This document shows, one piece after another, positions 22,901-51,945 of a stretch of DNA of 64,000 bases. Numbering within the stretch: the stretch's first letter is position 1; each line of letters opens with the position of its first letter. Location: NCBI GenBank assembly GCA_964610095.1, contig CAZSUT010000003.1:19278-83277 (forward strand). Direction: 5' to 3'. The notes under the pieces were generated by a model, which made no database searches, had not been told where the DNA came from, and was given only the letters and a program-made list of their open reading frames with translations. Both the position numbers and the translations under genes were made by a program. Origin of the DNA: an uncultured Nitrospirales bacterium. Lineage in GTDB: Bacteria > Nitrospirota > Nitrospiria > Nitrospirales > NS-4.

Positions 22901-22914
22901 GCCCTTAGCTCACT

Positions 22915-24936: not shown

Positions 24937-24957
24937 GGCGTGGGATCCGGCGATCGC

Positions 24958-25764: not shown

Positions 25765-25802
25765 CTCGACAAAACTTCTTTGCGCGGCCACGGTGGGTTC
25801 CC

Positions 25803-27557
25803 CTACTCCGCGCCGGCCACGGCCGGGACTGCCTTCGATGTCTCGGCGTGAGCCTTCCCTTTTTCCGTTCGCAGCGTCAAGATAATCGCAAAGCTCACGA
25901 CGATGTAAAAGGTCAGCGTGACCCCCGTGAACACCCAACTGGAATAGGCCAGCGTGGGCGTAAAGGACTCAGGCGTGAAATCATATTGCAGGTTGAAGAC
26001 GTGGAAGTACTTCCGCGTCAGCTCGCGGACCGCGCCCATCAGCGTCATCGTCCAGATCGCGCTGAAGGCCAGGAAAACGAGGACGAACTGGGCAACAAAA
26101 TCGATCTTGCCCCAGACGATCCGCCCCTGACGCAAGGCACGATTGTAGAGGATGTAGTTCACGATGGTGACGAAGACCAACGTGAAGGCTGCCGCATTTT
26201 TGGCCGGCATCAGCGCCAGATCACCCCACGATATCGTCACAAAGCCCAGGCTGAGTTCCCCGTGAGGCAAGCTGAGCGAGCCGTCGTCGGGTGCCAGCGC
26301 CTGCGTCGCGACAAAGGCATGCGGCGTCATCCAGATGGCATTGCCGATGATTACCATCAGAAACGCCACCTTGACCATGGTCTGTGCTCCGACGGTCCAC
26401 TTGAGGAACCTGCCGGCAATCAGAAAGAGCGCGATCCAGCAAGCTGGCAGAATAAAGGCAAACTTGTCCGGGATCGGAAACCTGGTCCAGAGCAACATGA
26501 ACACCACGGGGATGCTCGCCATGAGGACCAGCGTGGTGGTCCTCATCCGGATCTGTTCCAATCCTTTGATCCGTTTCATACTCAGCCAGATGTAGTAGTT
26601 GCTGGCCAGGAAGATCAGCCCGACCATCGCCCCCTGCATCTCGAAAAACATGGAGAGCTGGTCCGCCATCATATAAGGACAAATGGACGCATCGTAGTCG
26701 CAAAGCTCGTAAGCCAGCAGGTAGCCGGCGAAAGGAAGGGCCAGCAGCGCTCCCACCCCGATCAGATTGCCCACAAACCCGAACCAATCGTAGAAGGCCC
26801 GTTCCTCGTCATTCTTGGCAGCCATATACATGTAGGCTCCGATCAGACCGGTGATGAACCCGCCGAAGACCACATTGCCGACCGTGCGGTGAATGTTCAG
26901 CGGCCACCAACTGTAGTTGTTCATCTTGTCCCACAGCGTTGCCGTGGTCTCGATGAACGTCTTGAGGTCCATGCCCCCCTCTGCAAACTTGGCCGGGGTG
27001 TTCATAAACGCCGTCGGGCCGTCGATCACGATGAGCGTGGCTAAGCCGATGATGTTCAGGAGCACTCCAAGCGCGATGTGCCGGAGCTTCTTGGGACCCT
27101 GCAAGGCGTCCCAGGTGTACCAGTAGAGATAGAGCACGATCGTCTCGAAGATAAAGAGCAGGGGATACATGACGGCGAAGACGGCGAAGAAGTGACCGAT
27201 CAGCCACGCCGTTAACTGCGGGTAGGTGGCCAGCAGCACAAAAATGAAGAGGCCGCCGGTCAGTGCCGTCATGCTGTAGAGGATTACGGTGACCTTGGTG
27301 ACCTCTTTGGCCAGCCGCTCGTACCGAGCATCCTGGTTTTTCCAGCCCAGAATCTCGCTGACCACCACGAAGATCGGCGCTCCCAGGATGAATGCCGCGA
27401 ACAGGATATGGAGCTGGGCTACTATCCAGACAGCCCCACGGTTTCCCATGTAGGGGAACTCGTGCGCCTTGGGCTCAGGCATCTGGGCGTAGGCAACAGC
27501 CGTTCCGACGAATACGAGCCCCGCTAAGATCAGAAGGCTGCGTTGCCAGGTCTTCAT
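25803..27557 (-). CDS. Cytochrome bd-like oxidase subunit I (CydA-like), copy B
   Basis: AQLHILFAA, WWPLNIHR, AFMNTP; clear paralog of 20161..22041. Confidence 0.82.
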   Translation of the reverse strand: MKTWQRSLLILAGLVFVGTAVAYAQMPEPKAHEFPYMGNRGAVWIVAQLHILFAAFILGAPIFVVVSEILGWKNQDARYERLAKEVTKVTVILYSMTALTGGLFIFVLLATYPQLTAWLIGHFFAVFAVMYPLLFIFETIVLYLYWYTWDALQGPKKLRHIALGVLLNIIGLATLIVIDGPTAFMNTPAKFAEGGMDLKTFIETTATLWDKMNNYSWWPLNIHRTVGNVVFGGFITGLIGAYMYMAAKNDEERAFYDWFGFVGNLIGVGALLALPFAGYLLAYELCDYDASICPYMMADQLSMFFEMQGAMVGLIFLASNYYIWLSMKRIKGLEQIRMRTTTLVLMASIPVVFMLLWTRFPIPDKFAFILPACWIALFLIAGRFLKWTVGAQTMVKVAFLMVIIGNAIWMTPHAFVATQALAPDDGSLSLPHGELSLGFVTISWGDLALMPAKNAAAFTLVFVTIVNYILYNRALRQGRIVWGKIDFVAQFVLVFLAFSAIWTMTLMGAVRELTRKYFHVFNLQYDFTPESFTPTLAYSSWVFTGVTLTFYIVVSFAIILTLRTEKGKAHAETSKAVPAVAGAE

Positions 27558-27597
27558 AACCCTCTCGCTTCCTTTTGTGCTGTTTAACTGCGCCCCT

Positions 27598-28191
27598 CTA
27601 TTTTCCGTCCTTTTTCGGGGCATTTTTGTTAGGCGTCGCCGCCGGAGCCTTGCCGTCACTGGCCGCTGGGGTCGCTCCGCCAGTTGCGGACGCGGCCGCT
27701 GGCGCTGGTTTCCCGAGTTCGGCCAGCGGGACCCACTCCTTCCTGGCCACATCGTAGCCCATCCCCTTGAGCCCGAAGGTCCGCTCGTAGGCCATGGCCT
27801 TCCACCGGTCCTCCTCAGGCAGCTTGGTCTTCCAGGACTTCATCTTGGTATTGGGCACCCCTTCCGAGATCCGCCAGAACCAGACACTGTCTGGGTAGAG
27901 CTTCATTCGCTCGGTCTTGCGGAAGTCCCTGGCGCCCGCCTTGACCGGCTTGCCGTCCTTGCCGTGGCAGGACGAGCAATTGACGTCGATGTTTTTGACC
28001 CCTTCGAAAATCTCTTTGCCCTCAGCGATGATCTTTTCATCAGCCCACCACCCGGCTGGCATGTGCTTGTCGGCATACTCCGGAGGAGCAGGCGGAGGGG
28101 GCTGAATTGGTCCTTCCTCTTCACCGCACCCCACAATGATGAGTCCAAAACTTCCAATGATCGTCAGGATTGCCAGGCTTGTGATCTTCAT
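27598..28191 (-). CDS. Mono-heme cytochrome c lipoprotein
   Basis: IIVGC lipobox, Pro-rich linker, CSSCH, WFWRISEGVPNTKM. Confidence 0.88.
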   Translation of the reverse strand: MKITSLAILTIIGSFGLIIVGCGEEEGPIQPPPPAPPEYADKHMPAGWWADEKIIAEGKEIFEGVKNIDVNCSSCHGKDGKPVKAGARDFRKTERMKLYPDSVWFWRISEGVPNTKMKSWKTKLPEEDRWKAMAYERTFGLKGMGYDVARKEWVPLAELGKPAPAAASATGGATPAASDGKAPAATPNKNAPKKDGK

Positions 28192-29839: not shown

Positions 29840-30238
29840 TTACAAGTGGCCGCGGGCTTGGGCTTCCGCCGCGATGCGCGCGGCTTCCGCCTTGCGCTCC
29901 GATTCCTTCTTCTTGACCCAGGACTCCCAGGACTTCCCGGATGCGGTGTCTTCGCCGGTAAAAGCGATCGCCACGATGTTAGCGTAGGAAATCTTCATCT
30001 CGCCGGGCTGTCCCTTGGGAAAGAGCTGCAGGAACGGCGGTGAAGCCAACGCGTTGCGATTGAAAATATACCCCTTGATCTTTTGTCCGGATGTCAGTTC
30101 CAGCGTCACATCGCCGCGGTAGTCGAAGGCGAGCTCGACAGCTTCTCGCAGCTCCGCTTCGTTCGCCGGCCGGAAGATCCGACCTTCAACGGAAGGGGCA
30201 CTGGTGCTGTGGGGTTGAGCGTCAGGCACAATGCGCAA
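29840..30238 (-). CDS. Hypothetical protein, possibly Sm-like fold, directly downstream of hpnH
   Basis: DYRGDVTLELTSGQKIKGYIFN beta pattern; 4-nt gap to hpnH. Confidence 0.6.
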   Translation of the reverse strand: MRIVPDAQPHSTSAPSVEGRIFRPANEAELREAVELAFDYRGDVTLELTSGQKIKGYIFNRNALASPPFLQLFPKGQPGEMKISYANIVAIAFTGEDTASGKSWESWVKKKESERKAEAARIAAEAQARGHL

Positions 30239-30242: not shown

Positions 30243-31259
30243 CTAGCGGGCGGTCGGCATCAGCGTGGCCACAACGGTCCGGCCAAATCCTCGGATGGTG
30301 CTGAAGGTGTCATGCACGGCCGACGCTTCATAGCCGCAATGGACCATGCAGTCGGCGCACTTCTCGTTCCGGCCGGTCCCGTAGTTATCCCAGTTCGTGT
30401 CCTCGATGAGCTGCCTGAAGGTCGCGGTGTAGCCGTCTTGGAGGAGGTAACACGGCTTCTGCCAGCCGAATATGTTGTAGGTGGGATTGCCCCACGGCGT
30501 ACACTGGTAATCCACTTTACCCATGAGGAAGTCCAGAAAGAGCGGCGACTGGTTGAACCGCCAGTGCTTCTTGGGCTTGTGCAGAATGCGCGCGAACACC
30601 TCCCGAGTCCGCTGCCGTTTGAGGAAGTTCTTCTGATCGGGCGCTTTCTCGTAACTGTACCCCGGCGAGATCATCATCCCTTCGACGCCCAGCTCCATCA
30701 TTGCGTCGAAGAACTTCCTCACACGCTCGGGAGCGGCATCGTTAAACAGAGTCGTATTGGTCGTGACCCGGAACCCGCGCGCGAGGGCTGCCTTGATCGC
30801 CCGGACAGCCACGTCATAGACGCCGTCCCGGCAGACTGCCATGTCATGCTCCTCCTGGAGCCCATCCATGTGGATGCTGAACGTCAGATACTTGGACGGG
30901 GTGTAGTCGTCGAGCTTGCGCTCCATCAAAATGGCGTTTGTGCAGAGATAGACGTACTTCTTCCGCTCGACCAGCCCCTTCACGATAAGCGGCATTTCCG
31001 GGTGGATGAGCGGCTCCCCGCCGGGGACGCTCACGATCGGCGCGCCGCACTCGTCCGCGGCCGCCCAGCACTGCTCCGGCGTCAGGCGCTTGTCCAGGAC
31101 GTGATCGGGGTACTGGATCTTCCCGCAGCCGGCGCACGCGAGATTGCAGCGAAACAGGGGCTCTAGCATCAGCACTAGCGGGTACCGCTTGACCCCCTTG
31201 AGCTTCTGGGCCAGCACGTACGATGCGACGGTGAACATCTGGGAGACAGGAACGGCCAT
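30243..31259 (-). CDS. hpnH: Adenosyl-hopene transferase (radical SAM)
   Basis: LMLEPLFRCNLACAGCGK, CTPWGNPT, CADCMVHCGYE. Confidence 0.93.
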   Translation of the reverse strand: MAVPVSQMFTVASYVLAQKLKGVKRYPLVLMLEPLFRCNLACAGCGKIQYPDHVLDKRLTPEQCWAAADECGAPIVSVPGGEPLIHPEMPLIVKGLVERKKYVYLCTNAILMERKLDDYTPSKYLTFSIHMDGLQEEHDMAVCRDGVYDVAVRAIKAALARGFRVTTNTTLFNDAAPERVRKFFDAMMELGVEGMMISPGYSYEKAPDQKNFLKRQRTREVFARILHKPKKHWRFNQSPLFLDFLMGKVDYQCTPWGNPTYNIFGWQKPCYLLQDGYTATFRQLIEDTNWDNYGTGRNEKCADCMVHCGYEASAVHDTFSTIRGFGRTVVATLMPTAR

Positions 31260-31367: not shown

Positions 31368-31724
31368 ATGATCGATCCGGCCAAGATCGAAGCGGGCCAC
31401 GAGCTTGACAGACTGATCGCGGAAACCGTGATGGGGCTCAACCCGAGAGAGCCGATCCCGCCCTACTCCACCGACATTGCGGCCGCCTGGACGGTGGTCG
31501 AGAAGATGATCCATGAAGACGGGGTGTATTTCGGCGCGCCGCATTTCAAGCACAAACATCAGAACCTCGCCTCGCTCGGCTATCCCGAGGGCACCGAGTG
31601 CTGGTACTGCGTCATCAACACCAAGCTGTTGAACAAGGTCGTGCTCTGCGCCGACACCGCTCCTCTCGCCATCTGCCGCATCGCCCTCCTCTGGGCCCTC
31701 AACCACGGCCCGCTCGCGGCTTAG
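31368..31724 (+). CDS. BC1872-like / phage ABA-sandwich domain protein
   Basis: AGHELDRLIAE.VMG, PPYSTDIAAAW.VVEKM, ADTAPLAICR.AL. Confidence 0.65.
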   Translation: MIDPAKIEAGHELDRLIAETVMGLNPREPIPPYSTDIAAAWTVVEKMIHEDGVYFGAPHFKHKHQNLASLGYPEGTECWYCVINTKLLNKVVLCADTAPLAICRIALLWALNHGPLAA

Positions 31725-31857: not shown

Positions 31858-31933
31858 TGGAGGCGCCGGGCGGGATCGAACCGCCGCATCGCAGTTTTGC
31901 AGACTGCTCCCTTAGCCACTTGGGTACGGCGCC
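31858..31933 (-). tRNA. tRNA-Cys(GCA)
   Basis: GGCGCCG..GCAGT-CTGCAAA-ACTGC..GTTCGA..CGGCGCC-T-CCA. Confidence 0.97.
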
Positions 31934-31945: not shown

Positions 31946-31975
31946 ATTATAACCGGATCTGGCGGTCCGGCTCAA
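31946..31975 (-). promoter_or_regulatory. Putative promoter of tRNA-Cys, overlapping the ispG stop
   Basis: TTGAGC-N18-TATAAT. Confidence 0.55.
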
Positions 31976-33153
31976 ACCTTGATGATGGGAATGTCTTTCT
32001 TCGCCGAAGCAGATTGAGCGGGAGCTGTTCCAGGTGAGGTTTCAGCCTGCCCGTCGTGGCCATTGTCCCCGTTGCCGGAGGACGCGGCCTCCCGTTCCTT
32101 GGCCATGATCTCGATCTCGGCCAGCAGCGTCTCCATCAACTCTTCCGACTTCACCTTCCGGACCAGCTTGCCTTCTTTGAACAGGATCCCGTGGCCTTCC
32201 CCGCCGGCGATGCCGATGTCGGCTTCCTTGCCCTCGCCGATCCCGTTGACGACGCAGCCAAGCACCGACACCGTCAGCGGTACGCGGACATGGCCGAGCC
32301 GCTTCTCGATCTCATTGGCCAGCTTGACGACGTCGATTTCCACACGGCCGCACGTCGGACAGGCGATGACGTTCACTCCGCGATGGCGCAGTTCGAGGGC
32401 TTTCAGGATTTCGAAGCCGACCTTAACCTCTTCCACCGGATCGGCCGCCAGCGAGACGCGGATCGTATCCCCGATCCCATCGGCCAGGAGCATCCCGATC
32501 CCGATCGCGGACTTGACGGACCCTGTTAGCAGCGTGCCCGCTTCCGTGACGCCCAGGTGCAAGGGGTAGTCGGACTGCAGGGCGAACAGGCGGTACGCGT
32601 CCACCATCAAATGCACGTCCGAGGCCTTGAGCGACACCTTCATGTTGGTGAACCCGATATCCTCCAGCGCGTGCACGGCGTTCAGGGCCGATTCCGCCAG
32701 CGCCTCGGCTGTGGGATAGCCGTACTTGGCCAGGAGTTCCCGCTCCAGCGAGCCGCCATTCACGCCGATCCGCAACGGGATGTTCCGCTCCCGCACGACC
32801 TTGACGACCTCTTCCACCTTCCACCAGGCGCCGATGTTGCCTGGGTTGATCCGCACGCAGTCCACCACCTCGGCCGCCTTTAGCGCCATGCGGTGATCGA
32901 AATGGATGTCGGCGATGATAGGAATCGTCGTCTGTTTCTTGATGGCCGGGAGCGCCTTGGCCGCCTCCGGTGTGTTGACCGTCACTCGCGCGATCTCGCA
33001 GCCGGCCAGCTCCAACTGGTGGATCTGCTCGACGGTGGCCTTCACGTCGGCGGTGTCGGGTGTCGTCATCGATTGGACCACGATCGGGGCCCCGCCCCCA
33101 ATGGGGACGTTCCCCACTCGGATCTGTCTCGTCTTGCGTCGCTTGATGAACAT
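31972..33153 (-). CDS. ispG: (E)-4-hydroxy-3-methylbut-2-enyl-diphosphate synthase
   Basis: VVQSMT, ADIHFD, RINPGNIG, RIGVNGGSL, CPTCGR and GCVVNG.GE. Confidence 0.95.
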   Translation of the reverse strand: MFIKRRKTRQIRVGNVPIGGGAPIVVQSMTTPDTADVKATVEQIHQLELAGCEIARVTVNTPEAAKALPAIKKQTTIPIIADIHFDHRMALKAAEVVDCVRINPGNIGAWWKVEEVVKVVRERNIPLRIGVNGGSLERELLAKYGYPTAEALAESALNAVHALEDIGFTNMKVSLKASDVHLMVDAYRLFALQSDYPLHLGVTEAGTLLTGSVKSAIGIGMLLADGIGDTIRVSLAADPVEEVKVGFEILKALELRHRGVNVIACPTCGRVEIDVVKLANEIEKRLGHVRVPLTVSVLGCVVNGIGEGKEADIGIAGGEGHGILFKEGKLVRKVKSEELMETLLAEIEIMAKEREAASSGNGDNGHDGQAETSPGTAPAQSASAKKDIPIIKV

Positions 33154-33155
33154 GC

Positions 33156-35051
33156 CTACCGACGCTCCACTCCCAGAATCGTCATCGTGTAGAGAGCTTT
33201 GGCTTCCTCATACATGCCGTCCGCCGTCAGCCCGCACTGCACGCGCAGGAGGTCTTGCGGCCCCTGCTCGATGTACTTGTCAGGCAGCCCCAGCACTTTG
33301 GTCGGCATGTGCACAATCCCCTGGTCCGACAGCGCCTCCAGCACCGCCGAACCGAATCCGCCCATGCGGCAGCCTTCTTCCACCGTCACCATGCACTTCG
33401 CCTGACGAGCCACCTGCGCGATCAATGCATGATCGAGCGGCTTGACGAACCGAGCGTTGACGACGGCGGCTGAGATCCCCTCGTCCGCCAGCCGCTCGGC
33501 CGCCTCCAGCGCCGGAAGGACCGTGATGCCAATGGCGACCAACGCCACATCATATCCCTCCCGCAGCAGTTCCGCCCGGCCGATCGGCAGCGCCTTGGGC
33601 TCGGCGTCCATGGGCACGCCCCACGCGCTCCCGCGGGAGTACCGCACGGAGGCCGGCCCTTCGTAGCTCAGGCACGTCTTCACCATGTGCTGCAGCTCGT
33701 TCTCGTCCTTGGGCGCCATCACCACCATGTTCGGCACATGTCGCAGGTAGGCGTAATCGAAGGCCCCGTGGTGAGTCGTCCCGTCCTCGGCTACCAACCC
33801 GCCTCGATCGATCAGGATCGTCACCGGCAAGTTCTGGGTCGCCACGTCGTGCACCACCTGATCGAAAGCGCGCTGAAGGAAGGTGGAATACATCGCCACG
33901 ACCGGCCGCGCGCCCTGCGTCGCCAAGCCAGCCGCGAAGGTCAGCGCGTGTTGCTCGGCGATGCCCACGTCGTGAAACCGGTCCGGGAACTCCTTTTGGA
34001 AGGCGGTCAACCCCGTCCCTTCGCACATGGCCGCCGTGATGGCGACAATGCGCCGGTCTTCGCGAGCCAGCCGGCACAGCGTCTTGATGGCCACCGCCGT
34101 ATAGGACGGCTTCGTGCTGGACTTGGCGGGCTGGCCCGTGTCTCGAATGAACGGCGAACAGGCGTGGAACCAGACCGGGTCCTTCATGGCCGGCTCATAC
34201 CCCCTGCCTTTCTTGGTGATCACGTGAAGCAGCGTCGGCCTTTTCAGTTTGAGCACGTTTTCGAGGGTCGACAGGAGATGCTCAAAGTTGTGTCCGTCGA
34301 TCGGCCCGACGTACCGGAAGCCCAGTTCCTCGAAGAGAACGCCGGGAAGCACCAGGCCCTTGGCCAATTCCTCGGCCCGGTGGGCGAGCCGTGTCAGTTG
34401 ATCGCCGACCCGCGGGATCGCCTTGAGCAGGTGCTTAGCTTCCTCCCGAATATGGGTAGCGAAGTCGCCGGTGAAGGTGCGATTTAAATAGGCCGAGAGC
34501 GACCCCACGTTCCTGGAGATGGACATCTGGTTGTCGTTGAGAATGACCAGCAGGTCCTTCTGCAGGCCGCCGACGTGCTGCATGGCTTCCAAGGTCATGC
34601 CGGAGGTCATCGCCCCGTCGCCCACGACGCAGACCACCTTGTGGTGCTGCCCCGCAAGGTCCCGCGCCACCGCCATGCCGATCGCCGCCGACACTCCGGT
34701 GCCGGCGTGCCCCGCGTTGAACGTGTCGTAGATGCTCTCCTCGCGCTTGCAGAAGCCGCTGAGCCCACCGTACTGCCGCAACGTGTGGAAGTGCTCGCGC
34801 CGACCCGTCAGCAGCTTATGCGCGTAGGCCTGATTGCTGGTGTCCCACACGATCTTGTCCTTGGGCGTGTCAAGCAGGTAGTGCAACGCCAACGTGAGCT
34901 CCACCACACCAAGGTTCGAGGCCAGATGTCCCCCGACAGCGGATGCCACCGAGATGATCTGCTCGCGGATCTCCTCGGCCAACACAGGCAGTTGCTCAAC
35001 CGACACCCGCTTCAAATCGGCCGGGCTGTCAATCGTCTTTAATATGGACAT
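33156..35051 (-). CDS. dxs: 1-deoxy-D-xylulose-5-phosphate synthase
   Basis: GGHLASNLGVVELT, GDGAMT..LNDNQMSIS, DVGIAEQHA, DRGGLV.EDG.THHG. Confidence 0.96.
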   Translation of the reverse strand: MSILKTIDSPADLKRVSVEQLPVLAEEIREQIISVASAVGGHLASNLGVVELTLALHYLLDTPKDKIVWDTSNQAYAHKLLTGRREHFHTLRQYGGLSGFCKREESIYDTFNAGHAGTGVSAAIGMAVARDLAGQHHKVVCVVGDGAMTSGMTLEAMQHVGGLQKDLLVILNDNQMSISRNVGSLSAYLNRTFTGDFATHIREEAKHLLKAIPRVGDQLTRLAHRAEELAKGLVLPGVLFEELGFRYVGPIDGHNFEHLLSTLENVLKLKRPTLLHVITKKGRGYEPAMKDPVWFHACSPFIRDTGQPAKSSTKPSYTAVAIKTLCRLAREDRRIVAITAAMCEGTGLTAFQKEFPDRFHDVGIAEQHALTFAAGLATQGARPVVAMYSTFLQRAFDQVVHDVATQNLPVTILIDRGGLVAEDGTTHHGAFDYAYLRHVPNMVVMAPKDENELQHMVKTCLSYEGPASVRYSRGSAWGVPMDAEPKALPIGRAELLREGYDVALVAIGITVLPALEAAERLADEGISAAVVNARFVKPLDHALIAQVARQAKCMVTVEEGCRMGGFGSAVLEALSDQGIVHMPTKVLGLPDKYIEQGPQDLLRVQCGLTADGMYEEAKALYTMTILGVERR

Positions 35052-35104
35052 CTCTTAAAAACCCTCCGAAAATCGAGCCATTTTCACACAGCAATGCCTG
35101 AGAG

Positions 35105-35740
35105 TCAAGGAACCCGCTCGCTGGAGCGCGGCCAAAACACCGAGATTCCGGCGTAGGCAAGGGTCGAATTCAGTCCGAGATTGCGGTGGCCGAAATCTGC
35201 ATTCGAGATGTGATGGAAACGAACGCCGATCGTCAGTGCTACCCTCTCCGTCGCGAAGTAGTGGAGGCCTGGACCGCTCTCCGTGACGAAGTTAAACTGT
35301 GTACTTTGCTCCGGAATACGCGGAGCCAGGTTTGTCCAAAGCATGCCCAGCCCGACATCCCAATAGGGCATCCACCGCCCGAACGAGAGGAAATTGTATT
35401 TAAACACGAGGGAGCCGCCGGCTGCTGAAGCTCCAAATGGCTTGAAATAGTGCGCGTATAACGGTTCAAAAAGGAGTTCCAAGTTCCCCGCGAAGAACCC
35501 TTTGCCTACCTCGGGGGTCAGCACCATTCCGATTCGTGGAAGGACATAGAGGGCGCTGCGGTTGCTCGAGACAGAAGTGAACGTGTCGTTCCCTTGGAGA
35601 TACCCTGTCACCAATCCAGCCTCGATCGTGCCAGCGCGCACGATCGTGTGGGCCTGTGGTGAATCCTCCGCTTGGGCATCAGGAGCGAAGGCCATCGCCG
35701 ATCCAACGAGCAGCACCCACGCCAGCAGCAGCCGTCTCAT
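35105..35740 (-). CDS. pagL: PagL-like lipid A 3-O-deacylase (outer-membrane beta-barrel)
   Basis: Signal peptide; FNF...G.G and RFHHISNA..N.GLNS (catalytic His-Ser region). Confidence 0.78.
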   Translation of the reverse strand: MRRLLLAWVLLVGSAMAFAPDAQAEDSPQAHTIVRAGTIEAGLVTGYLQGNDTFTSVSSNRSALYVLPRIGMVLTPEVGKGFFAGNLELLFEPLYAHYFKPFGASAAGGSLVFKYNFLSFGRWMPYWDVGLGMLWTNLAPRIPEQSTQFNFVTESGPGLHYFATERVALTIGVRFHHISNADFGHRNLGLNSTLAYAGISVFWPRSSERVP

Positions 35741-35770
35741 TTCTGCTCCTTTCGCTTTGCTTGGCCCGTG

Positions 35771-36979
35771 CTAGAAGGGAAAGTCCAGCCCCGCGAAGAC
35801 GGCTTGCCCCTCATTGCCCGTCGCAAAATCCACCCGGCCCACCACATTGGGACGTGAGATCGCCCGAAACCCGATCCCGGGGTTGGCTTCGTACTGGGAG
35901 AAGGCCCTGTATCGGAACGTGTTGGCCACCTTGCCAACATCGAGGAAAGGCGCCGTCTCCACTTCGGCTATGGTTCCGAAGATCCGCAAGTGAAACAATT
36001 GAATCCGCTCTTCAAAGTTGAAGACGAGGGAGTGATTGTCAACGAACCGGCCCACGCCGAAGGCGCGCAAGGTGTTCTGCCCCCCCAAACTGCTCCGCTC
36101 GAAGAAGGGAACTGCATCGCCGCCGACCGTGGCTTCCAGCCTGCCTCGAAAGACGAAGGTGTACTGCTTGGTGGCGTTCGGAAGCAGCACCCGGTATTCA
36201 ATACCATACCGACTGAATATCGTATTCGTACTGGCCGTGAGGGTCTGCGCCAGCTCCGCAAACATCGAAAAGTAGTGACCGATCGTGGGTGTTACCGTGT
36301 CGTCTCGTGTGTCGTTCAAGTACGCCAGCTTGTGGCCCCACACCGTCCCCCCGCCCGTCCCCTTGATCGCGGGAAACACCAACTGCGTGAAGGGGATGTC
36401 CGGCACCGCGCCCGGCTGGATCTCGACGTTCCGGAGCCGCTCTGTCCAGAGCACCCGCTCGTTCGGTCCGATGTAGAGCCCTGTCGTGATATGACCGAGC
36501 AACTCGCGGTCGGTGTAGTTGGTCTCCTGGGCCGGCGAGGTCTGGCTGCCGATGCCGAAGAACCGCGCCGTCGCGTTCTTGAAGAACCCGACATTCGTCT
36601 CCAGGCTGAAGCGGCCCCCCAGCAGGAAGAGATTCCGATAGCTGTAGAGGAATTTCCGCTCGGTCTTCTCTGTGTACGATGCAATGAGTTTGTATTCCTC
36701 GCCCCGAGTCGGATATTGATAGATATTCATCACCGCACGCGAGCCGACGAACTCGTTGTGGATGAACATCGGCGCGATGATCTGGGTGATGCGCTGCTCT
36801 TCGTCTGCGAAAATGTACGGGACGATCACCCCGACGTCCACGCCGTCGTTCTTCGACGTCGCGACGGCCGGAATCACAAAATAGGATCGCTCTTCGGCGG
36901 ATGCCGGAAATGGGGACAGCAGAGCCGGTGCCATGGCGCACAGCATCACGAGCCCGGCACGGCGAAGGCGACGTGCCAC
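35771..36979 (-). CDS. Omp85/BamA-TamA family outer-membrane barrel with no POTRA domains
   Basis: Signal peptide followed directly by amphipathic strands; LGGQNTLRAF (VRGF-like lid loop); PFLDVG; terminal GLDFPF. Confidence 0.78.
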   Translation of the reverse strand: MARRLRRAGLVMLCAMAPALLSPFPASAEERSYFVIPAVATSKNDGVDVGVIVPYIFADEEQRITQIIAPMFIHNEFVGSRAVMNIYQYPTRGEEYKLIASYTEKTERKFLYSYRNLFLLGGRFSLETNVGFFKNATARFFGIGSQTSPAQETNYTDRELLGHITTGLYIGPNERVLWTERLRNVEIQPGAVPDIPFTQLVFPAIKGTGGGTVWGHKLAYLNDTRDDTVTPTIGHYFSMFAELAQTLTASTNTIFSRYGIEYRVLLPNATKQYTFVFRGRLEATVGGDAVPFFERSSLGGQNTLRAFGVGRFVDNHSLVFNFEERIQLFHLRIFGTIAEVETAPFLDVGKVANTFRYRAFSQYEANPGIGFRAISRPNVVGRVDFATGNEGQAVFAGLDFPF

Positions 36980-36985
36980 CTGATC

Positions 36986-37636
36986 TCATCGGCTCCGGGC
37001 CGAATCGTCGCCGGCAGGGCCAGGGGCTTTGATGTGTTCCGCCTTCTCCCGAAGCTGCTTGGTCAGCGCGGTAAACGAATCCTTGCGGAGGATTCTTTTG
37101 AACTGTTCGCGATAGTTCTGGACGAGGCCGGTGCCCTCCACCACCACATCATAGACGCGCCAGTCCCCCGATGCCATCTCCATCTTATAGATGATGTCCA
37201 GCGCAGTTTTGCCGTTGTCGATCTTCGTATAGACTTCCGCGTACTCGCCATCGACGATCTCTTTGGGGTATTGGATCTTCTCCCCGGTGTAATTCTCGAT
37301 TTTTCCTAAATACGAGTTGGCCAGGAGGGTCTGGAAGGAGGCTGCAAAATCCTTTTGCTCCTCCGGCGTTCGTTTGTTCCACTCGGCTCCCAGGGCCCGC
37401 CGTGACATTTCGAGAAAATTGAACCTCTGGGCGATCGTCCGCTCAAGCAGCTTCCGTCGCTCTTCCTTCTTCTCGGGTTTCTTCCACGCCGGGTCCTCGA
37501 GAATACGAACCACCTCATCGACGGACTTCCTGACCGCATCTGTGGGAGACCCTGCCCATGCCGTCTCGCCGAGCATCCCTCCCCCGACCAAACCACCGAT
37601 CAGGAGAGCAACCCAGAAATCTTTACACCGTTGCAT
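36986..37636 (-). CDS. mlaC: MlaC/Ttg2D (HpnM-like) periplasmic lipid-binding protein
   Basis: FNF.EMSRRALG..W, WRVYDVVVEG..LV.NYR.QF. Confidence 0.88.
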   Translation of the reverse strand: MQRCKDFWVALLIGGLVGGGMLGETAWAGSPTDAVRKSVDEVVRILEDPAWKKPEKKEERRKLLERTIAQRFNFLEMSRRALGAEWNKRTPEEQKDFAASFQTLLANSYLGKIENYTGEKIQYPKEIVDGEYAEVYTKIDNGKTALDIIYKMEMASGDWRVYDVVVEGTGLVQNYREQFKRILRKDSFTALTKQLREKAEHIKAPGPAGDDSARSR

Positions 37637-37683
37637 GACGTCTCTCCTCTTGCACTGTCAGCATGGCAGAACGGACGACAGAC

Positions 37684-38130
37684 TCACTTGACGTTGCCAT
37701 GAATAAACTCTCCGATCAGCGATTCCAGATCCACACCCGATTCCGTGTCACGGATCTTGCTTCCCGGCGGCAGCTCTTTCTGCGACCCGCCGGGCGAGAT
37801 CGCCACGTACTTGTCGCCGATCAGCCCGCGTGTCTTGATCGACGCGATGGCATCGCCATAAATCTTCACGCCAGGATGGAGAGACAACACCACGAGCGCC
37901 CGGTCGTCCTTCAGCCCGATTCGCTTCACTTGGCCGACCTGCACCCCAGCGATCTCCACGGTCGCGCCCGTCTTGAGCCCCGCGACGGAATCGAATTCCG
38001 CTTGGACCTCAATCTGATTCCCACCCCCGATGACTTCGAGCTTGCCGAGCTTGACCGCCATGTACGTCAAGGCGGCGAGGCCGACCAGGACGAAGACCCC
38101 GACGATGAGTTCTAGTTTCGTGTCATGCAT
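37684..38130 (-). CDS. mlaD: MCE-domain protein MlaD
   Basis: VGVFVL TM, FDSVAGLK.GA.V.IAGV.VG.V, IKTRGLIGDKY. Confidence 0.92.
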   Translation of the reverse strand: MHDTKLELIVGVFVLVGLAALTYMAVKLGKLEVIGGGNQIEVQAEFDSVAGLKTGATVEIAGVQVGQVKRIGLKDDRALVVLSLHPGVKIYGDAIASIKTRGLIGDKYVAISPGGSQKELPPGSKIRDTESGVDLESLIGEFIHGNVK

Positions 38131-38150
38131 GGGTACCGGGCCTCCTGGAC

Positions 38151-38927
38151 TCACCCGGAGGTGACAACTTCGGGCCTAGGCCCGACATTAATGAACTCCC
38201 GCACGGCGGGATGCCGGGTCCGCTGGAACTCTTCCGCCAGCGCCATCTCGACGATCACCCCGTCCAACAGCATCGCGACGTAATCCGAGATACCGAAGAT
38301 TTCTGGGATCTCGTGGCTCACCATGACGGCCGTGAACCTGAACTTCCGCTGAGTCTCGACGATCAGTTCATGGATGGTTCGTGCCAGGAGGGGATCCAGG
38401 CCGGTGGTGGGCTCGTCAAACAGGATGATCTCCGGCCCCATGACGAGCGCGCGGGCCAACCCGGCCCGCTTGCGCATGCCGCCGCTGAGCTCCGCGGGGA
38501 ATTTGTGGCCCATGCCCGTGAGTCCGACCGCCTCCAGCATCTCAAGGACCTTCCGTTCGATCTCCGCTTCTTTCATTTTCGTCTTCTCGCGCAAAGGAAA
38601 GGCAACGTTTTCAAAAACGTTGAGCGAGTCGAACAGCGCCGCGCTCTGGAACAGCATCGCGAATTTCTTCCGCACTTCGTTGAGCTCGCGCGAGCACAGC
38701 CTGGTGATATCGATCTCGTCCACCAGCACCTGCCCGTGATCCGGCTTCAGCAGCCCGATCATGTGCTTGAGCAACACACTCTTGCCGCCGCCGCTCTTGC
38801 CGATCACCGTGGTGACCTTCCCTCGGGGAATCTCCAAGTTGACTCCTTGCAGGACAGGCTGTCCCCCGAGCGTCTTTTTCACCCCCACGAGGCGAATCAC
38901 CGGCTTAGATTCCTCCTTACTTTTCAT
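38151..38927 (-). CDS. mlaF: ABC transporter ATPase MlaF
   Basis: Walker A GKSGGGKS, FQSAALFDSL, LSGGMRKRAGLARAL, DEPTTGLDP. Confidence 0.92.
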   Translation of the reverse strand: MKSKEESKPVIRLVGVKKTLGGQPVLQGVNLEIPRGKVTTVIGKSGGGKSVLLKHMIGLLKPDHGQVLVDEIDITRLCSRELNEVRKKFAMLFQSAALFDSLNVFENVAFPLREKTKMKEAEIERKVLEMLEAVGLTGMGHKFPAELSGGMRKRAGLARALVMGPEIILFDEPTTGLDPLLARTIHELIVETQRKFRFTAVMVSHEIPEIFGISDYVAMLLDGVIVEMALAEEFQRTRHPAVREFINVGPRPEVVTSG

Positions 38928-38946
38928 CAGAGCGCCTGCGACGTTC

Positions 38947-39720
38947 TCACATTAAGACCGAGGTCACAAAATAGTCCCAGATGAGGATGAGCACGGAGGA
39001 CAGCACCACCGCCTCGGTCGTGGCGGTTCCCAATCCTTCGGCGCTCATCGTTGTATTGTACCCTTTATACGTACAGACCCAGGACACGATCACGCCGAAG
39101 CTGATGGCCTTGAGAAATCCGCCGTAGACGTCCTTCCACTCCACGCTGGATTCCATCGAGCTGGTATAGGCGCCCGAACTCACCCCCAAAAGTTCGACGC
39201 CGACCAGATAGCCGCCGTAAATGCCGATGAGGTCGAAGATCGAGCAGAGCATGGGCATGATGAGAACGCTGGCCAGCACTTTGGGCGCGATCAGGTACTG
39301 CATGGGGTTGACCGCCATCGTGTCCAACGCGTCGATCTGCTCGGTGATGCGCATGATGCCGATCTCCGCCGTCATGGCAGAGCCCGCCCGCCCCGTCACC
39401 ATCAGCGCCGACAGCACCGGCCCTAGTTCGCGAATGATGCTCAGGGCCACAGCCGAGCCCAGCCACCCTTCCGCGCCGAACTTCCGCAGCGAATAGTACC
39501 CCTGCAGCCCCAACACCATCCCGGTAAAGGCGCCCGTCAGCACGATCACGAAGAGGGATTTCACTCCGATGAAGTGGATCTGCTTCAGCACCTGCAGGAA
39601 CCGGAAGGGGGGCCGCACCATCCAGGCCACCGTGCTGATCAGGAAGACCATCATGCGGCCCATCTCGCCGACGAGCCCCAAGGCGTTCCGACCGAATCCG
39701 GCGACAGCAGCAGCGACCAT
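38947..39720 (-). CDS. mlaE: ABC transporter permease MlaE
   Basis: RELGPVL..GRAGSAMTAEIG.MRITEQIDAL. Confidence 0.93.
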   Translation of the reverse strand: MVAAAVAGFGRNALGLVGEMGRMMVFLISTVAWMVRPPFRFLQVLKQIHFIGVKSLFVIVLTGAFTGMVLGLQGYYSLRKFGAEGWLGSAVALSIIRELGPVLSALMVTGRAGSAMTAEIGIMRITEQIDALDTMAVNPMQYLIAPKVLASVLIMPMLCSIFDLIGIYGGYLVGVELLGVSSGAYTSSMESSVEWKDVYGGFLKAISFGVIVSWVCTYKGYNTTMSAEGLGTATTEAVVLSSVLILIWDYFVTSVLM

Positions 39721-40520
39721 CAGTGCGCTCCCATCGTCAAGGTCGCTTCCGCATCAGGAGGCGGAAGCTGCGACTCGAGAACGAGGACCAACGCGCAGAA
39801 GAACCTTCTCAGACTTTCCGAGGCCTGATCCGCATGGCGTTTCATCTCATAGAGTCCATAAAGAATGGACGGGTGCTGCACTACCTTGAGAAGACAGCGA
39901 AATGACCCGAACGGTGAGAACCACAGGTTGAAATCCATCGGCAGATCGTCTCCGACACGATCTGATATGGCGCGAACCACGAGAAACGGGATGCCGGCCG
40001 TGATGGCCACTTTGGCGATAACGGCACTCTCCATATCGACCGCAACGGCTCCGCTGACTCCTCCGAGCGCCCGCTTCTCACTAGCTCGCCAAAGCACGTT
40101 TTTCACGGTAACAACGGGTCCCTGAGTCCATCCTATCCCAGCATTACGGGCAGCCACCCTTGCGCTCCCGAGCAAATCAGGGTTCGCCTGAATCGCCGCA
40201 TGCGATTCTTCCGCAGTCCAATCAATGGCATTGGTGCCGAGGATAACTTCTCCCACAGCCGCAACCCCAAGAGCGCCCGCATACCCTGTCAAGATCAGCG
40301 CATCCGGCGCGAGTGCGAGCAAAGCCATCTCACTGGCCTTCCGCGCGCGTTCGGGACCAACACCAGCCTCAATCAGATGGAGTTCTAAACCACCAACCTG
40401 CCCGACTTGATGGGGGAACGATCCAAGGCGGTCACGTTGTCTCTGAGCGAACAGGCCGAACACATTCTCAACTGGCGCCAACTCGCGCGCGGAAGCGGCC
40501 AGGACGGCGAGGCGTCGCAT
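39720..40520 (-). CDS. hpnG: Hopanoid-associated nucleoside phosphorylase
   Basis: GVG..A, TGYAGAL, AVDMESA, VVRAISD; directly after shc. Confidence 0.75.
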   Translation of the reverse strand: MRRLAVLAASARELAPVENVFGLFAQRQRDRLGSFPHQVGQVGGLELHLIEAGVGPERARKASEMALLALAPDALILTGYAGALGVAAVGEVILGTNAIDWTAEESHAAIQANPDLLGSARVAARNAGIGWTQGPVVTVKNVLWRASEKRALGGVSGAVAVDMESAVIAKVAITAGIPFLVVRAISDRVGDDLPMDFNLWFSPFGSFRCLLKVVQHPSILYGLYEMKRHADQASESLRRFFCALVLVLESQLPPPDAEATLTMGAH

Positions 40521-40523
40521 CGG

Positions 40524-42692
40524 CTACGCCTCGAAGCGGAAACGGCCGTGCTGACGATTCTGCTCCAGGATCTCGTCCGCGCGGCTGTGCCCGCGCGCCT
40601 TGAGCGACCGGTACATGGACAAGGCCCAGAGGGGGAAGTACTGGCAGTAGCCGTGATAGCGCAGATAGAAGACGCGAGGAAACCCCGTGCCGGTGTGCTT
40701 GCGTTCAGGCCAGTATCCTTGCGCGTCCTGCTGCCGGAGCAGGTAGTTCACGCCGCGCAACACGCTGAGCGAGTCCACTTCGCCGGCGCAGAGGAGCGCG
40801 AGCAGCGCCCACGCGGACTGGGACGGCGTGCTTTCGCCCACCCCATGCGCGTCGGCCTCGGCGTATGAGAGACAGGACTCGCCCCACCCGCCGTCCGGAT
40901 TCTGTTTTGAGACGAGCCACGCCACCGCCCGGCGGACGTACTCGGCCTCCATGTCCTCGCCGATCGCGTTCAATCCGGCGAGCACGGACCAGGTCCCATA
41001 GACGTAATTGACGCCCCACCGCCCGTACCAGGACCCGTCGGCCTCCTGGTTCTTCCGCAGAAAGCGCAACGCCCGCACGGCCGCTGGGTGCTTCATGTCG
41101 AACCCCAGCGACCCTAGCATTTCCAGTTCGCGCCCCGCGAGGTCGGCCGTGCTGGGATCGAGCAGCGCCCGGTGGTCGGCGAAGGGAATCTGGTTCAAGA
41201 ACATTTTGTTGTTGTCCTTGTCATACGCACCCCAGCCGCCGTCGCTGCCCTGCATGGCTAGCGTCCAGCGCATCCCACGCCGCATGCCGTCACGCTGGGC
41301 GTCCCATTCCGGCATCTTGATCTTCGAGAGCGCCATCACCACCACGGCCGTATCGTCGTTGTCCGGATAGAACTCGTTCTCGAACTGGAACGACCATCCG
41401 CCCGGCTCGGCCTTCGGCGACGATACGATCCAGTCGCCGACCTTCCGGCACTGCCGGGAGAGGGTCCAGCGGGCGGCCTTCACCAGCGCCGGGTGATCTT
41501 GCGGAAGCCCGCTCTCGATCAGGGCGTTGATGGTCAAGGGGGTGTCCCAGACGGGAGAAAAGCAGGGTTGCAGGTGCATGGCGTCCCCTTCGTAAACCTC
41601 CAGCGCCTCGATCTCGTGCAAGGCCTTGCGCACCAGAAGATGATCCACCGCGTACCCCAGGCATCGCAACGCCACGACCGAGTTCGCCATCGCCGGATAG
41701 ATGGCTCCCAACCCGCCGTCACCCTCCATCCGCTCGATCATCCACTGCGCGGCGCGGGCGACGGCTTTCTTGCGGAGTCCCTGCGGGACGACCCGATCGT
41801 AGATTCTTAGGATGCCATCCAGCGTGATGAAAAAGTTGCGCCACGTGAACCGGCGGGGATCCTTGCGGAAGGGGGGCTCGCTTCGGAAGTCAACCCACTC
41901 GCGGGCTGGGTAGTACAGCTCGTCGATGCCCTGCTCTTTCGGAATCCGACAGACAGGCTTGTAGTGGAAGATGATCAGCAACGGGGTCAGCACCGTCCGG
42001 GACCAATAGGAGAGAGCGTACAGACTGAAGATGAACCGGGGCGGCAGCAGGACGATCTCCGCCGGCATCGACGGGATCCCGCGCCAGTCGTACTGATCGA
42101 AAAGCGCCAGCGCGATCTTGGTGAACACGTTCGCTCCAACGACGCCGCCTTTGCTCAGGATCATCGTGCGGGCCTTCTCCATGAAGGGCTCGGTGGCCGA
42201 CACGCCGCAGAGCTTCAACGCGAAGTAGGCTTTCACCGACGCGCTGATCTCGGGCGGCCCGCCATAGTAGATCGGCCACCCGCCTTCAGGCACCTGGGCG
42301 TCAATCAGGTAGCGAACGGCCTTTCGCTCTTTCTCCGGATCCGCGAAGTCCAGGAACCGGCACAGCATGAGGTACTCGGCAGTCAGCGTCGTGTCGGCTT
42401 CCAGTTCGTGGAGCCAGTACCCTGCCTCCGTCTGGCCCCGCAACAGCCACTGCTGGCTTCGCTTAATGGCCTCGTCAACGGCATCGCCTTTGTGAGCCAC
42501 GCCCTGGCCGGAAACCTGTCCCGGGTCGTGAGGCCGCTGGACGGCCTGAGCAGACAGAAAGAATTTGGGATTGCCGCCGACAAGCCGGAGGAGCCGCTTA
42601 GCCTTCTGCCGGGCCTGTTGCTGAACTCGCTCCGGCGCCACAGACAAAATTTTCTCGGACCAGTTGGTCAAGAAACCGAGCAACCGCTTCAT
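40524..42692 (-). CDS. shc: Squalene-hopene cyclase
   Basis: DNDDTA (DxDD), QW repeats (QNPDGGWG, QEADGSWYGRWG), TGFPRVFYLRY. Confidence 0.96.
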   Translation of the reverse strand: MKRLLGFLTNWSEKILSVAPERVQQQARQKAKRLLRLVGGNPKFFLSAQAVQRPHDPGQVSGQGVAHKGDAVDEAIKRSQQWLLRGQTEAGYWLHELEADTTLTAEYLMLCRFLDFADPEKERKAVRYLIDAQVPEGGWPIYYGGPPEISASVKAYFALKLCGVSATEPFMEKARTMILSKGGVVGANVFTKIALALFDQYDWRGIPSMPAEIVLLPPRFIFSLYALSYWSRTVLTPLLIIFHYKPVCRIPKEQGIDELYYPAREWVDFRSEPPFRKDPRRFTWRNFFITLDGILRIYDRVVPQGLRKKAVARAAQWMIERMEGDGGLGAIYPAMANSVVALRCLGYAVDHLLVRKALHEIEALEVYEGDAMHLQPCFSPVWDTPLTINALIESGLPQDHPALVKAARWTLSRQCRKVGDWIVSSPKAEPGGWSFQFENEFYPDNDDTAVVVMALSKIKMPEWDAQRDGMRRGMRWTLAMQGSDGGWGAYDKDNNKMFLNQIPFADHRALLDPSTADLAGRELEMLGSLGFDMKHPAAVRALRFLRKNQEADGSWYGRWGVNYVYGTWSVLAGLNAIGEDMEAEYVRRAVAWLVSKQNPDGGWGESCLSYAEADAHGVGESTPSQSAWALLALLCAGEVDSLSVLRGVNYLLRQQDAQGYWPERKHTGTGFPRVFYLRYHGYCQYFPLWALSMYRSLKARGHSRADEILEQNRQHGRFRFEA

Positions 42693-50408: not shown

Positions 50409-50465
50409 GTTATTGTCTCCTTTTTTGACAAACTTAGTAAACTTAGACTCAAAAAAACACTTCTC

Positions 50466-51401: not shown

Positions 51402-51404
51402 GGT

Positions 51405-51854
51405 TTATCTCCAACGTTGGCGAGAGCTACGAGCGACTGAAATGAAATCCTCCAGGCTGTAGTTGTCCAGAATACCGGCGATGGCGTTCCGCACCTCGCC
51501 CATCGCATCCTGCAGCGGACAGTAGGCCTTCTTCGCATACGGGCAGTCGCGGCATTTCTTGTAAGCCGTCTTGCTGACACAGCCGATCGGGGCCAACGGG
51601 CCGTCCAAGATGCGGATGACCTGCCCCAGCGTGACTTTCGCCGGCGGCTTGATCAGGGCATACCCCCCCTGCGCCCCGCGGATGCTGGCCAACAGCCCGG
51701 CGTGCTTGAGCGCCAACAGGATCTGCTCCAGGAACACGATCGGGATGTTCTGCCGCTCGGCGATCTGATGCCGCCGGACCGGGGTCCCACCATAGGCCTT
51801 GGTGAGCTCGATCAGAGCGCGCAGGGCATACTCACTTTTCTTCGAAAAGCGCAT
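51405..51854 (-). CDS. Rrf2 family transcriptional regulator with four Cys
   Basis: YALRALIEL, FLEQILLAL..AGLL.SIRGAQGGY; C-x8-C-x2-C-x7-C. Confidence 0.92.
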   Translation of the reverse strand: MRFSKKSEYALRALIELTKAYGGTPVRRHQIAERQNIPIVFLEQILLALKHAGLLASIRGAQGGYALIKPPAKVTLGQVIRILDGPLAPIGCVSKTAYKKCRDCPYAKKAYCPLQDAMGEVRNAIAGILDNYSLEDFISVARSSRQRWR

Positions 51855-51887
51855 GGATTTCTTTTAAAGTTTATAAAGTGAGTCGAT

Positions 51888-51916: not shown

Positions 51917-51945
51917 GAGATTTTTTACTGGGGCGTTCTCGGCAC

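Follow-up and report, generated by a model that had tools for sequence, protein, structure and literature searches.

A POTRA-less Omp85 barrel and Mla-type transport genes in the hopanoid clusters of Nitrospirota and Methylomirabilota: a candidate hopanoid trafficking module

A 64-kb stretch of DNA from an uncultured Nitrospirales bacterium (contig CAZSUT010000003.1), hereafter called the window and meaning the whole stretch that was analysed, carries a run of ten genes in which an Mla-type lipid transport set and an Omp85-superfamily outer-membrane barrel devoid of POTRA domains (a "noNterm" Omp85) stand among genes of hopanoid and isoprenoid biosynthesis. The best explanation of this run is that it represents the Nitrospirales form of the hopanoid supercluster, with an envelope lipid-trafficking module placed between the hopanoid enzymes and the enzymes of isoprenoid precursor supply, and the arrangement exceeds chance, since it recurs in ~120 independent loci. 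We give a probability of roughly 0.5 to the reading that the module traffics hopanoids and that the noNterm Omp85 forms its outer-membrane end, in the place taken elsewhere by MlaA or HpnS. The narrower proposal, that this barrel itself receives the hopanoids brought by an HpnM-like carrier of the MlaC family and is the site of their insertion into the outer membrane, is more doubtful and is put forward tentatively. The new element is the POTRA-less Omp85 in a hopanoid-associated Mla-like route, the tie between the carrier and hopanoids being already known.

Organization of the ten-gene run

Gene identities in the window were assigned by profile searches against Pfam and NCBIfam with curated cutoffs. 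Ten minus-strand open reading frames (ORFs) occupy positions 31972-42692, and all the genes, their order and their strand agree, by profile matches, with a preliminary description of the same DNA that had been made from the letters alone. From the first to the last gene of the run they are:

40524-42692, minus strand: shc, squalene-hopene cyclase, first of the run (TIGR01507, 787 bits, cutoff 431; PF13243, PF13249)
39720-40520, minus strand: hpnG-like nucleoside phosphorylase/nucleosidase, PNP_UDP_1 (PF01048, 80.6 bits; TIGR03468, HpnG, 111 bits, below the cutoff of 187)
38947-39720, minus strand: mlaE-type permease of an ATP-binding cassette (ABC) transporter (PF02405, 282.6 bits; TIGR00056, 263 bits, cutoff 212)
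38151-38927, minus strand: mlaF-type ABC ATPase (PF00005, 115.5 bits; top NCBIfam model MlaF PRK11831, 226 bits, below the cutoff of 441)
37684-38154, minus strand: mlaD, single MCE domain with an N-terminal membrane anchor (TIGR04430, 144.1 bits, cutoff 135; PF02470)
36986-37636, minus strand: mlaC-family periplasmic lipid carrier, HpnM-like, with signal peptide (PF05494, 150.7 bits; TIGR03481, 78 bits, cutoff 160)
35771-36979, minus strand: omp85, POTRA-less (noNterm) Omp85-superfamily barrel (PF01103, 55 bits)
35105-35740, minus strand: PagL-family 8-stranded outer-membrane barrel (PF09411, 55.8 bits, cutoff 23)
33156-35051, minus strand: dxs, first enzyme of the methylerythritol phosphate (MEP) pathway (TIGR00204, 844 bits)
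31972-33153, minus strand: ispG (gcpE), MEP pathway, last of the run (PRK00366, 503 bits; PF04551, 497 bits)

The distances between these genes, computed from shc to ispG, are 3, -1, 19, -4, 47, 6, 30, 53 and 2 nucleotides (nt); the range of -1 to 53 nt given beforehand had the correct maximum, and its minimum has to be lowered to -4. With gaps of at most 53 nt the operon-like packing leaves no room for MlaB inside the operon. HpnG is the best NCBIfam model for the PNP_UDP_1 gene, whose score stays below the cutoff and whose position is conserved, while the MlaE protein reaches 288 bits against the narrower NF033619 model (below its cutoff of 315) and the translated MlaD begins with a hydrophobic helix. 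The squalene-hopene cyclase and HpnH, encoded shortly beyond ispG, both score above their cutoffs, and enzymes of a hopanoid cluster are therefore present in the window. The dxs and ispG genes are general genes of the MEP pathway, and their presence in hopanoid clusters is already familiar.

Neither HpnN/MMPL nor MlaA (PF04333) nor STAS/MlaB was detected in any sizeable ORF scanned within the window, which agrees with the earlier statement that hpnN, mlaA and mlaB are missing from it, and the sole pump of the resistance-nodulation-division (RND) type is an AcrB-type protein at 58474-61698. Scans for promoters and terminators gave numbers close to those of shuffled controls, and the Rfam scan found tRNAs only. 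A sigma-70-like site (TTGACT, a spacer of 17 nt and GAAAAT with TG in front of it) lies on the minus strand at 35080-35108, within the 53 nt that separate dxs from the PagL-like gene; a promoter of their own is accordingly possible for dxs-ispG, bearing in mind that the counts of such sites are about those of the shuffled controls.

Conservation of the run in Nitrospirota

A genome scan seeded with an alignment of 10 Omp85 sequences and limited to one genome per species returned at least 80 loci, all of them from Nitrospirota. Neighbouring genes were counted by tblastn in these loci of ~21 kb, considering only the contigs that reach far enough. The mlaC gene lies directly upstream of omp85 in 71/71 loci, and shc and the hpnG-like gene, always adjacent to each other, occur upstream in all 54 loci that could be counted; mlaEFD are present in 56 of 60 and dxs lies downstream of omp85 in 61 of 64. 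The same gene order was found in ~40 further metagenome loci, and the block had already been seen in the first two look-ups, in which the Omp85 proteins are ~45% identical. In Candidatus Nitrospira bockiana, for example, the order is smc, shc, hpnG-like, mlaE, mlaF, mlaD, mlaC, omp85, dxs and ispG. Neighbourhood conservation in Nitrospirota had been proposed as a check of the preliminary description; on running it the core order proved to be conserved, and Mla-type genes and an Omp85 are embedded in hopanoid and isoprenoid genes, as had been claimed, in every Nitrospirota locus examined.

Across the surveyed Nitrospirota loci the Omp85 and the MlaC-like proteins are only ~40-45% identical and the core gene order is nonetheless unchanged, with a gap of 6-15 nt between mlaC and omp85 in the loci that were read. 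Homologues of the Omp85 and the PagL-like protein of the window bear Nitrospirota, Nitrospirales or Nitrospira names. There is one Mla set only in the window and in each 21-kb locus, and no MlaA was reported for the genes called in those related loci, from Nitrospirota and Methylomirabilota, that were read. In five species (loci L035, L040, L046, L047 and L065) the order is reduced to shc-hpnG-mlaC-omp85 with merely 171-612 bp from hpnG to mlaC, an interval that leaves no room for mlaEFD. Since these loci without mlaEFD keep mlaC and omp85, what remains associated with the hopanoid genes is the pair of carrier and barrel rather than the ABC pump.

Hopanoid contexts of omp85 beyond Nitrospirota

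Contexts outside Nitrospirota were collected by a profile search of proteins, by look-ups of single loci and by one metagenome scan. In Methylomirabilota, whose Omp85 proteins are 36-39% identical to that of the window, one strand carries PF04240, hpnH, an ORF of 115 residues, an hpnG-like gene, omp85, hpnA, a squalene/phytoene synthase (SQS), dehydrogenases (ADH), a PagL-like gene and ispH, and the divergent strand carries shc, mlaE, mlaF, mlaD, a TolC-like outer-membrane efflux protein (OEP) and usually mlaC. The product of the gene that follows omp85 is a true HpnA (465 bits, cutoff 368). Moreover, the metagenome scan, anchored on the Methylomirabilota clade, added 11 loci of at least 4 kb, all in a hopanoid context. 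As the linkage is kept with a different gene order, it points to a functional tie rather than to accidental synteny.

A more distant locus (L091, Omp85 32% identical) carries shc, an hpnG-like gene, hpnA and an HpnL-like gene, with omp85 9 kb downstream on the same strand; its HpnA is 58% identical to that of Methylomirabilota, and no Mla genes were seen near omp85 at this locus.

A separate observation concerns the TolC-family OEP of Methylomirabilota, which is located between mlaD and mlaC (L087 1513-3015, L089 1578-3002, L090 1271-2719); it is unusual for an MCE/ABC system to be paired with a TolC-like protein.

The Omp85 barrel

The Omp85 of the window consists of the barrel only, which is assigned to the 16-stranded Omp85 type. 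An AlphaFold2 model (predicted local distance difference test, pLDDT, 77; predicted template modelling score, pTM, 0.75) places strands from residue 29, after the signal peptide, to the C-terminus, and Foldseek retrieved BamA and TamA barrels as the top matches of this model (E ~5e-11 to 1e-9, template modelling (TM) scores up to 0.66). No POTRA domain was matched by Pfam in this protein or seen in its model, and the score against the BamA equivalog TIGR03303 is 34.7 bits (cutoff 297). Given that the strands begin right past the signal peptide, with no POTRA, the protein falls into the noNterm class of Omp85.

The lid-lock motif of the superfamily has been defined as (V/L/M)RG(F/Y/W) on loop 6 and FxDxG on strand 13 (PMC11358297). 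In the window protein loop 6 reads L303-R304-A305-F306, where the family consensus is LRGFG, and strand 13 reads F344-L-D346-V-G348. Residues R304, F344, D346 and G348 are invariant among 25 aligned Nitrospirota homologues, and R304 and G348 are still invariant in a family alignment of 63 sequences. The whole mature protein is matched by a family of proteins of ~400 residues, with 118 representatives at E<1e-30 and 336 at E<1e-10, and PF19412 appears among the matches of the profile search only in lower-scoring, more distant proteins. The role of noNterm Omp85 proteins is poorly understood, and all characterised members of the superfamily handle proteins (PMC11358297).

The MlaC-type carrier

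The carrier encoded directly upstream of omp85 scores 78 bits against the HpnM model (TIGR03481) and 39 bits against the MlaC model PRK15117 (cutoff 195), and the corresponding HpnM/MlaC scores of its counterparts are 108/32 bits in L001, 108/40 in L003 and 99/37 in L087. HpnM was thus the top NCBIfam model for every carrier scored, with 2-3x the score of the MlaC model. HpnM itself is a long-standing TIGRFAM for the MlaC-type proteins of hopanoid clusters. The solved relatives of the window carrier are structures of the MlaC family (E 1.6e-16 to 1e-7), of which 2QGU is the closest; as this is an MlaC-family protein of uncertain subtype, with E. coli MlaC more distant, the structures do not separate HpnM from MlaC.

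The variable position after omp85

The position following omp85 is variable. In 72 Nitrospirota loci it is taken by a DUF3187/Phenol_MetA_deg-like gene (36 loci), a TPR protein gene (13), dxs directly (12), a PagL-like gene (5), a DUF1207 gene (3) or a gene of no recognised family (3). The DUF3187 protein (L012, L013, L047, L074 and 32 others) has ~340 residues and a signal peptide, its match to Phenol_MetA_deg being weaker. Relatives whose Omp85 is 88% identical to that of the window (L007, L008) have no PagL-like gene in this position, and PagL-like homologues 62-65% identical to the window protein stand beside unrelated genes. Both the occupancy of 5/72 and the unrelated neighbourhoods of the homologues indicate that PagL is not a core gene in Nitrospirota and is a lineage-specific occupant of the position, so that its standing as a core member of the run is not upheld. 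A PagL-like gene does recur in the hopanoid clusters of Methylomirabilota.

The PagL-like protein of the window is probably an active serine esterase, as predicted from its conserved residues. Its AlphaFold2 model is an 8-strand barrel with PDB 2ERV among the top Foldseek matches (target-normalised TM 0.64-0.68), and a profile of the family matches 2ERV (E=1.7e-6) with the HxSN motif aligned. Residues H176, S178, N179, N186 and N190 are invariant. We take His126, Ser128 and Glu140 to be the catalytic residues of Pseudomonas aeruginosa PagL (2ERV); the HYSN motif of that enzyme is matched in the alignment by His176 and Ser178, and the position of Glu140 is held by the invariant Asn190.

HpnN beside the Mla-Omp85 block

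The preliminary description had treated the Mla set as a substitute route for an absent HpnN, an idea contradicted by relatives in which a true HpnN adjoins the Mla-Omp85 block. In L003 and L027 the cluster continues with omp85, a TPR protein, a second shc, HpnN, a B12-binding radical-SAM enzyme and dxs (L003 11184-19452), and the HpnN of L003 reaches 863 bits (cutoff 752); L022, L026, L029 and L031 are similar to L003, with HpnN homologues beside the block. Since both HpnN and Mla-Omp85 can occur within a single cluster, the lack of hpnN in the window does not indicate a replacement, and as a general statement the replacement of HpnN by Mla is ruled out, true HpnN being found inside the same cluster in some Nitrospirales. 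The second shc of L003 is a paralogue 43% identical to the shc of the window, the TPR protein after omp85 in this locus gives a weak match to BstC (31.7 bits, cutoff 350), and the radical-SAM enzyme of L003-type loci is not matched by any of the HpnR/HpnJ models.

Of the hopanoid transporters HpnN alone has been characterised, and the steps in the periplasm and at the outer membrane are conjectural (PMC12324291). A route composed of HpnN, HpnM and HpnS and modelled on Mla has been proposed for proteobacteria (Lawrence et al., bioRxiv 2025/2026, PMC12324291); both versions of that work make no mention of MlaD, MlaE or Omp85 and do not discuss Nitrospirota gene clusters. In targeted full-text literature searches, no MlaFED-Omp85 module was found to have been described for hopanoid clusters. 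The claim that the window holds an undescribed system needs to be qualified, in that the association of the carrier with hopanoids was already known (HpnM; PMC12324291).

Proposed route and alternative explanations

Under the favoured reading, the MlaFED ABC/MCE complex would extract hopanoids from the inner membrane, with HpnN, where it is carried, acting as well or instead. The cargo would then be handed over to the periplasmic MlaC-type, HpnM-like carrier and delivered, by a presumed contact between carrier and barrel, to the POTRA-less Omp85, which would stand where MlaA stands in E. coli and where HpnS stands in the proteobacterial proposal; the lateral seam of the barrel could give the lipid access to the outer membrane. 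The gene after omp85 would supply a variable outer-membrane accessory, such as the PagL-like esterase, DUF3187, DUF1207 or the BstC-like TPR protein. The hopanoid nature of the substrate and the outward direction of transport are both suppositions of this scheme.

Several observations weigh against it. The argument is one of guilt by association, drawn from gene neighbourhoods and families. All surveys were anchored on omp85, so shc clusters without omp85 fall outside the counts. The two phyla may not be fully independent, since shc is ~52% and hpnH ~70% identical between Methylomirabilota and Nitrospirota and the clusters may share ancestry; in Nitrospirota, synteny extends in 40 loci to the SMC gene, which is unrelated, so conservation there could be plain inheritance. 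All the carriers scored below the HpnM cutoff of 160.1 (window 78, L001 and L003 108, L087 98.7 bits), so they are HpnM-leaning rather than members of HpnM, and the MlaD of the window exceeds the curated equivalog threshold for the MlaD of ordinary lipid asymmetry (144 versus 135). Besides, some more distant members of the Omp85 family stand in non-hopanoid contexts: one from Casimicrobiaceae (29% identical) adjoins a TonB-dependent receptor, one from a planctomycete (32%) is placed among kinases and one on another contig (32%) lies between GT87 and PMT glycosyltransferases. The hopanoid link marks the part of the Omp85 family nearest to the window protein and not the whole family.

The main rival to the hopanoid reading, somewhat unlikely in our judgement, is that mlaFEDC form an ordinary phospholipid/lipid-asymmetry system, MlaB-less as in many non-proteobacteria, in which the Omp85 replaces MlaA and the place beside shc and dxs reflects a conserved neighbourhood of envelope lipid genes rather than hopanoid cargo. 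The MlaD score just mentioned fits this view, as do the MlaD of Methylomirabilota (138 bits against TIGR04430, cutoff 135), the MlaE score above the family cutoff and the finding of no second Mla set, MlaA or MlaB in the window, and the region behaves like conserved core genome insofar as it contains the general genes dxs and ispG and a syntenic SMC gene. It accounts less well for the five species that keep mlaC-omp85 beside shc-hpnG with mlaEFD absent from the locus, for the Methylomirabilota omp85 that lies among hpnG and hpnA on the strand opposite to mlaEFD, for L091, where the hopanoid cluster that includes omp85 has no Mla genes in its vicinity, and for carriers that are closer to the HpnM than to the MlaC model. 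Quite unlikely, in turn, is a barrel that inserts or translocates the adjacent outer-membrane protein (PagL-like, DUF3187 or DUF1207), in the way that other Omp85/TpsB members serve their partner proteins, and that takes no direct part in lipid transport, the Mla genes being independent neighbours. A predicted outer-membrane barrel does follow omp85 in 44/72 Nitrospirota loci (DUF3187 in 36, PagL-like in 5, DUF1207 in 3), the lid-lock motifs are intact and protein handling is what all characterised Omp85 members do (PMC11358297), but the next gene is dxs itself in 12 loci and encodes a TPR protein in 13, the invariant partner is the upstream mlaC (71/71, at the short gaps given above), and the genes on either side of the Methylomirabilota omp85 are hpnG and hpnA, neither of which encodes an outer-membrane protein.

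Least probable of all appears an inherited synteny without functional tie, that is, a frozen accident spread by vertical descent and one transfer to Methylomirabilota. Unrelated genes for SMC, PilZ and DnaJ-like proteins are likewise syntenic in close relatives, and the clusters of both phyla are homologous gene for gene; however, the linkage outlasts the inversion and reshuffling between the phyla and the loss of mlaEFD, the gaps of -4 to 53 nt suggest co-transcription, and the core order has remained unchanged while Omp85 and the MlaC-like protein diverged to ~40-45% identity.

Significance of the candidate module

Knowledge of the way in which hopanoids arrive at the outer membrane is incomplete, and the cluster makes the question testable by naming candidates for every step of hopanoid transport in two phyla of environmental importance, with nitrite oxidisers in one and nitrite-dependent methane oxidisers in the other. 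Participation of an ABC/MCE engine in the hopanoid route is suggested, and the POTRA-less Omp85 barrels gain a first functional lead in the form of a concrete hypothesis. If the barrel does receive and insert hopanoids, this would give the orphan noNterm Omp85 a first lipid-handling role and a first function of any kind, and would add a second, ABC/MCE-powered route of hopanoid export beside HpnN. The genes at the position after omp85 would then be lineage-specific outer-membrane accessories, one of which might couple hopanoids to lipid A or remodel it. Even with phospholipid as the cargo, the replacement of MlaA by an Omp85 would represent a novel architecture for Mla systems outside proteobacteria.

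Neighbouring genes and other features of the window

The features next to the ispG end of the run are:

31858-31933, minus strand: tRNA-Cys, directly past ispG, ending the protein-coding run (ARAGORN; Rfam tRNA, 59.7 bits)
30243-31259, minus strand: hpnH, adenosylhopene transferase (TIGR03470, 556 bits, cutoff 225)
29840-30238, minus strand: ORF of 132 residues, 4 nt downstream of hpnH, with no Pfam or NCBIfam match

The hpnH gene, which the preliminary description had correctly placed just beyond the run (a 556-bit match), starts 0.7 kb past ispG with the tRNA-Cys and a plus-strand Phage_ABA_S ORF in between; it shares the neighbourhood of the run and probably belongs to a separate transcription unit. 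The Phage_ABA_S ORF (38.8 bits, 31368-31724) is wedged between tRNA-Cys and hpnH in the orientation opposite to all its neighbours, and a minus-strand ORF of 142 residues listed at the same site is probably spurious. The ORF of 132 residues is 42% identical (E=2e-30) to the one of 115 residues after hpnH in Methylomirabilota. A homologue was detected after hpnH in many Nitrospirota loci, hpnH itself following ispG in many, and this ORF is a candidate for an undescribed hopanoid-associated gene paired with hpnH, as judged from its recurrent position. On the other flank, upstream of shc, there are a divergent gene with a DnaJ domain, a PilZ gene and smc.

Farther away, a respiratory block on the minus strand (17084-27752) contains two proteins, paralogous to each other, that have a distant relationship to subunit I of cytochrome bd (20161-22101 and 25803-27752), as well as several c-type cytochromes, a cytochrome b (22915-24000) and a Rieske protein (24001-24936). 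We take this block to resemble the bd-like oxidase arrangement of the Nitrospira type, bd-like oxidases and cytochromes being typical of the group. A phosphate-related group at 48915-55285 comprises a porin O/P with an N-terminal SHOCT motif, a TauE-like exporter, an Rrf2 regulator, a CHAD-domain protein, a PHO4 phosphate transporter and a PhoU-like DUF47 protein. In addition, a protein of 662 residues with a C-terminal caspase (Peptidase_C14) domain is encoded at 14095-16083 (minus strand), and an adenylate/guanylate cyclase with a CHASE2 sensor at 4555-6903 (plus strand) overlaps a long ORF of the opposite strand that has no family match.

Comparison with known systems

The PagL-like protein shares with the lipid A 3-O-deacylase PagL of P. 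aeruginosa the Pfam family, the 8-stranded barrel and the His-x-Ser-Asn motif at the catalytic His126/Ser128, and differs from it in the invariant Asn in place of Glu140, in giving no NCBIfam match and in a gene that is only sporadic in the cluster. The Omp85 of the window resembles the noNterm Omp85 proteins (Heinz and Lithgow 2014; Leptospira LIC12252/12254/12258), which are likewise barrel-only, with a short periplasmic N-terminus and lid-lock motifs; the group of Leptospira and Bacteroidota carries DUF5982, whereas Pfam did not detect DUF5982 in the window protein, and a hopanoid/Mla neighbourhood had not previously been reported for the class. The TamA-TamB pair also has an Omp85-superfamily barrel, and the window barrel matches TamA barrels by fold. 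TamA possesses three POTRA domains that dock TamB, whereas the window barrel has no POTRA and its candidate partner is a soluble shuttle of the MlaC type rather than an AsmA-like bridge. TamA-TamB nevertheless offers a precedent, its Omp85 barrel being reported as the outer-membrane end of an envelope-spanning system implicated in lipid transfer (PMC13119328, PMC11014939).

Among routes for polycyclic triterpenoid lipids, the window cluster invites comparison with BstABC. In Methylococcus this system transports sterols, BstA being an HpnN-related RND pump and BstC a TPR protein associated with the outer membrane. Some Nitrospirales likewise have a weakly BstC-like TPR protein and HpnN after omp85, but the window has neither of these two proteins and Bst has no MCE/ABC or Omp85 component. 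The Mla system of E. coli (MlaFEDB, MlaC and MlaA-OmpF/C) offers the same logic of pump, shuttle and outer-membrane acceptor, and MlaE, an MlaF-type ATPase, a single-MCE MlaD and an MlaC-family carrier are joined in one operon in both cases. In the window, however, no MlaB or MlaA is found in the cluster or in any other ORF scanned, a POTRA-less Omp85 is encoded at the place expected for an outer-membrane partner, the operon is set among hopanoid and MEP genes, and the cargo would presumably be a hopanoid instead of a glycerophospholipid. The HpnN-HpnM-HpnS route likewise has an MlaC-type carrier in hopanoid clusters and a proposed shuttle to an outer-membrane acceptor, which is there the MlaA-like lipoprotein HpnS, with the RND protein HpnN as the engine (PMC12324291), whereas the window cluster carries MlaFED, HpnN occurs in some of its relatives only, and the candidate acceptor is the Omp85 barrel.

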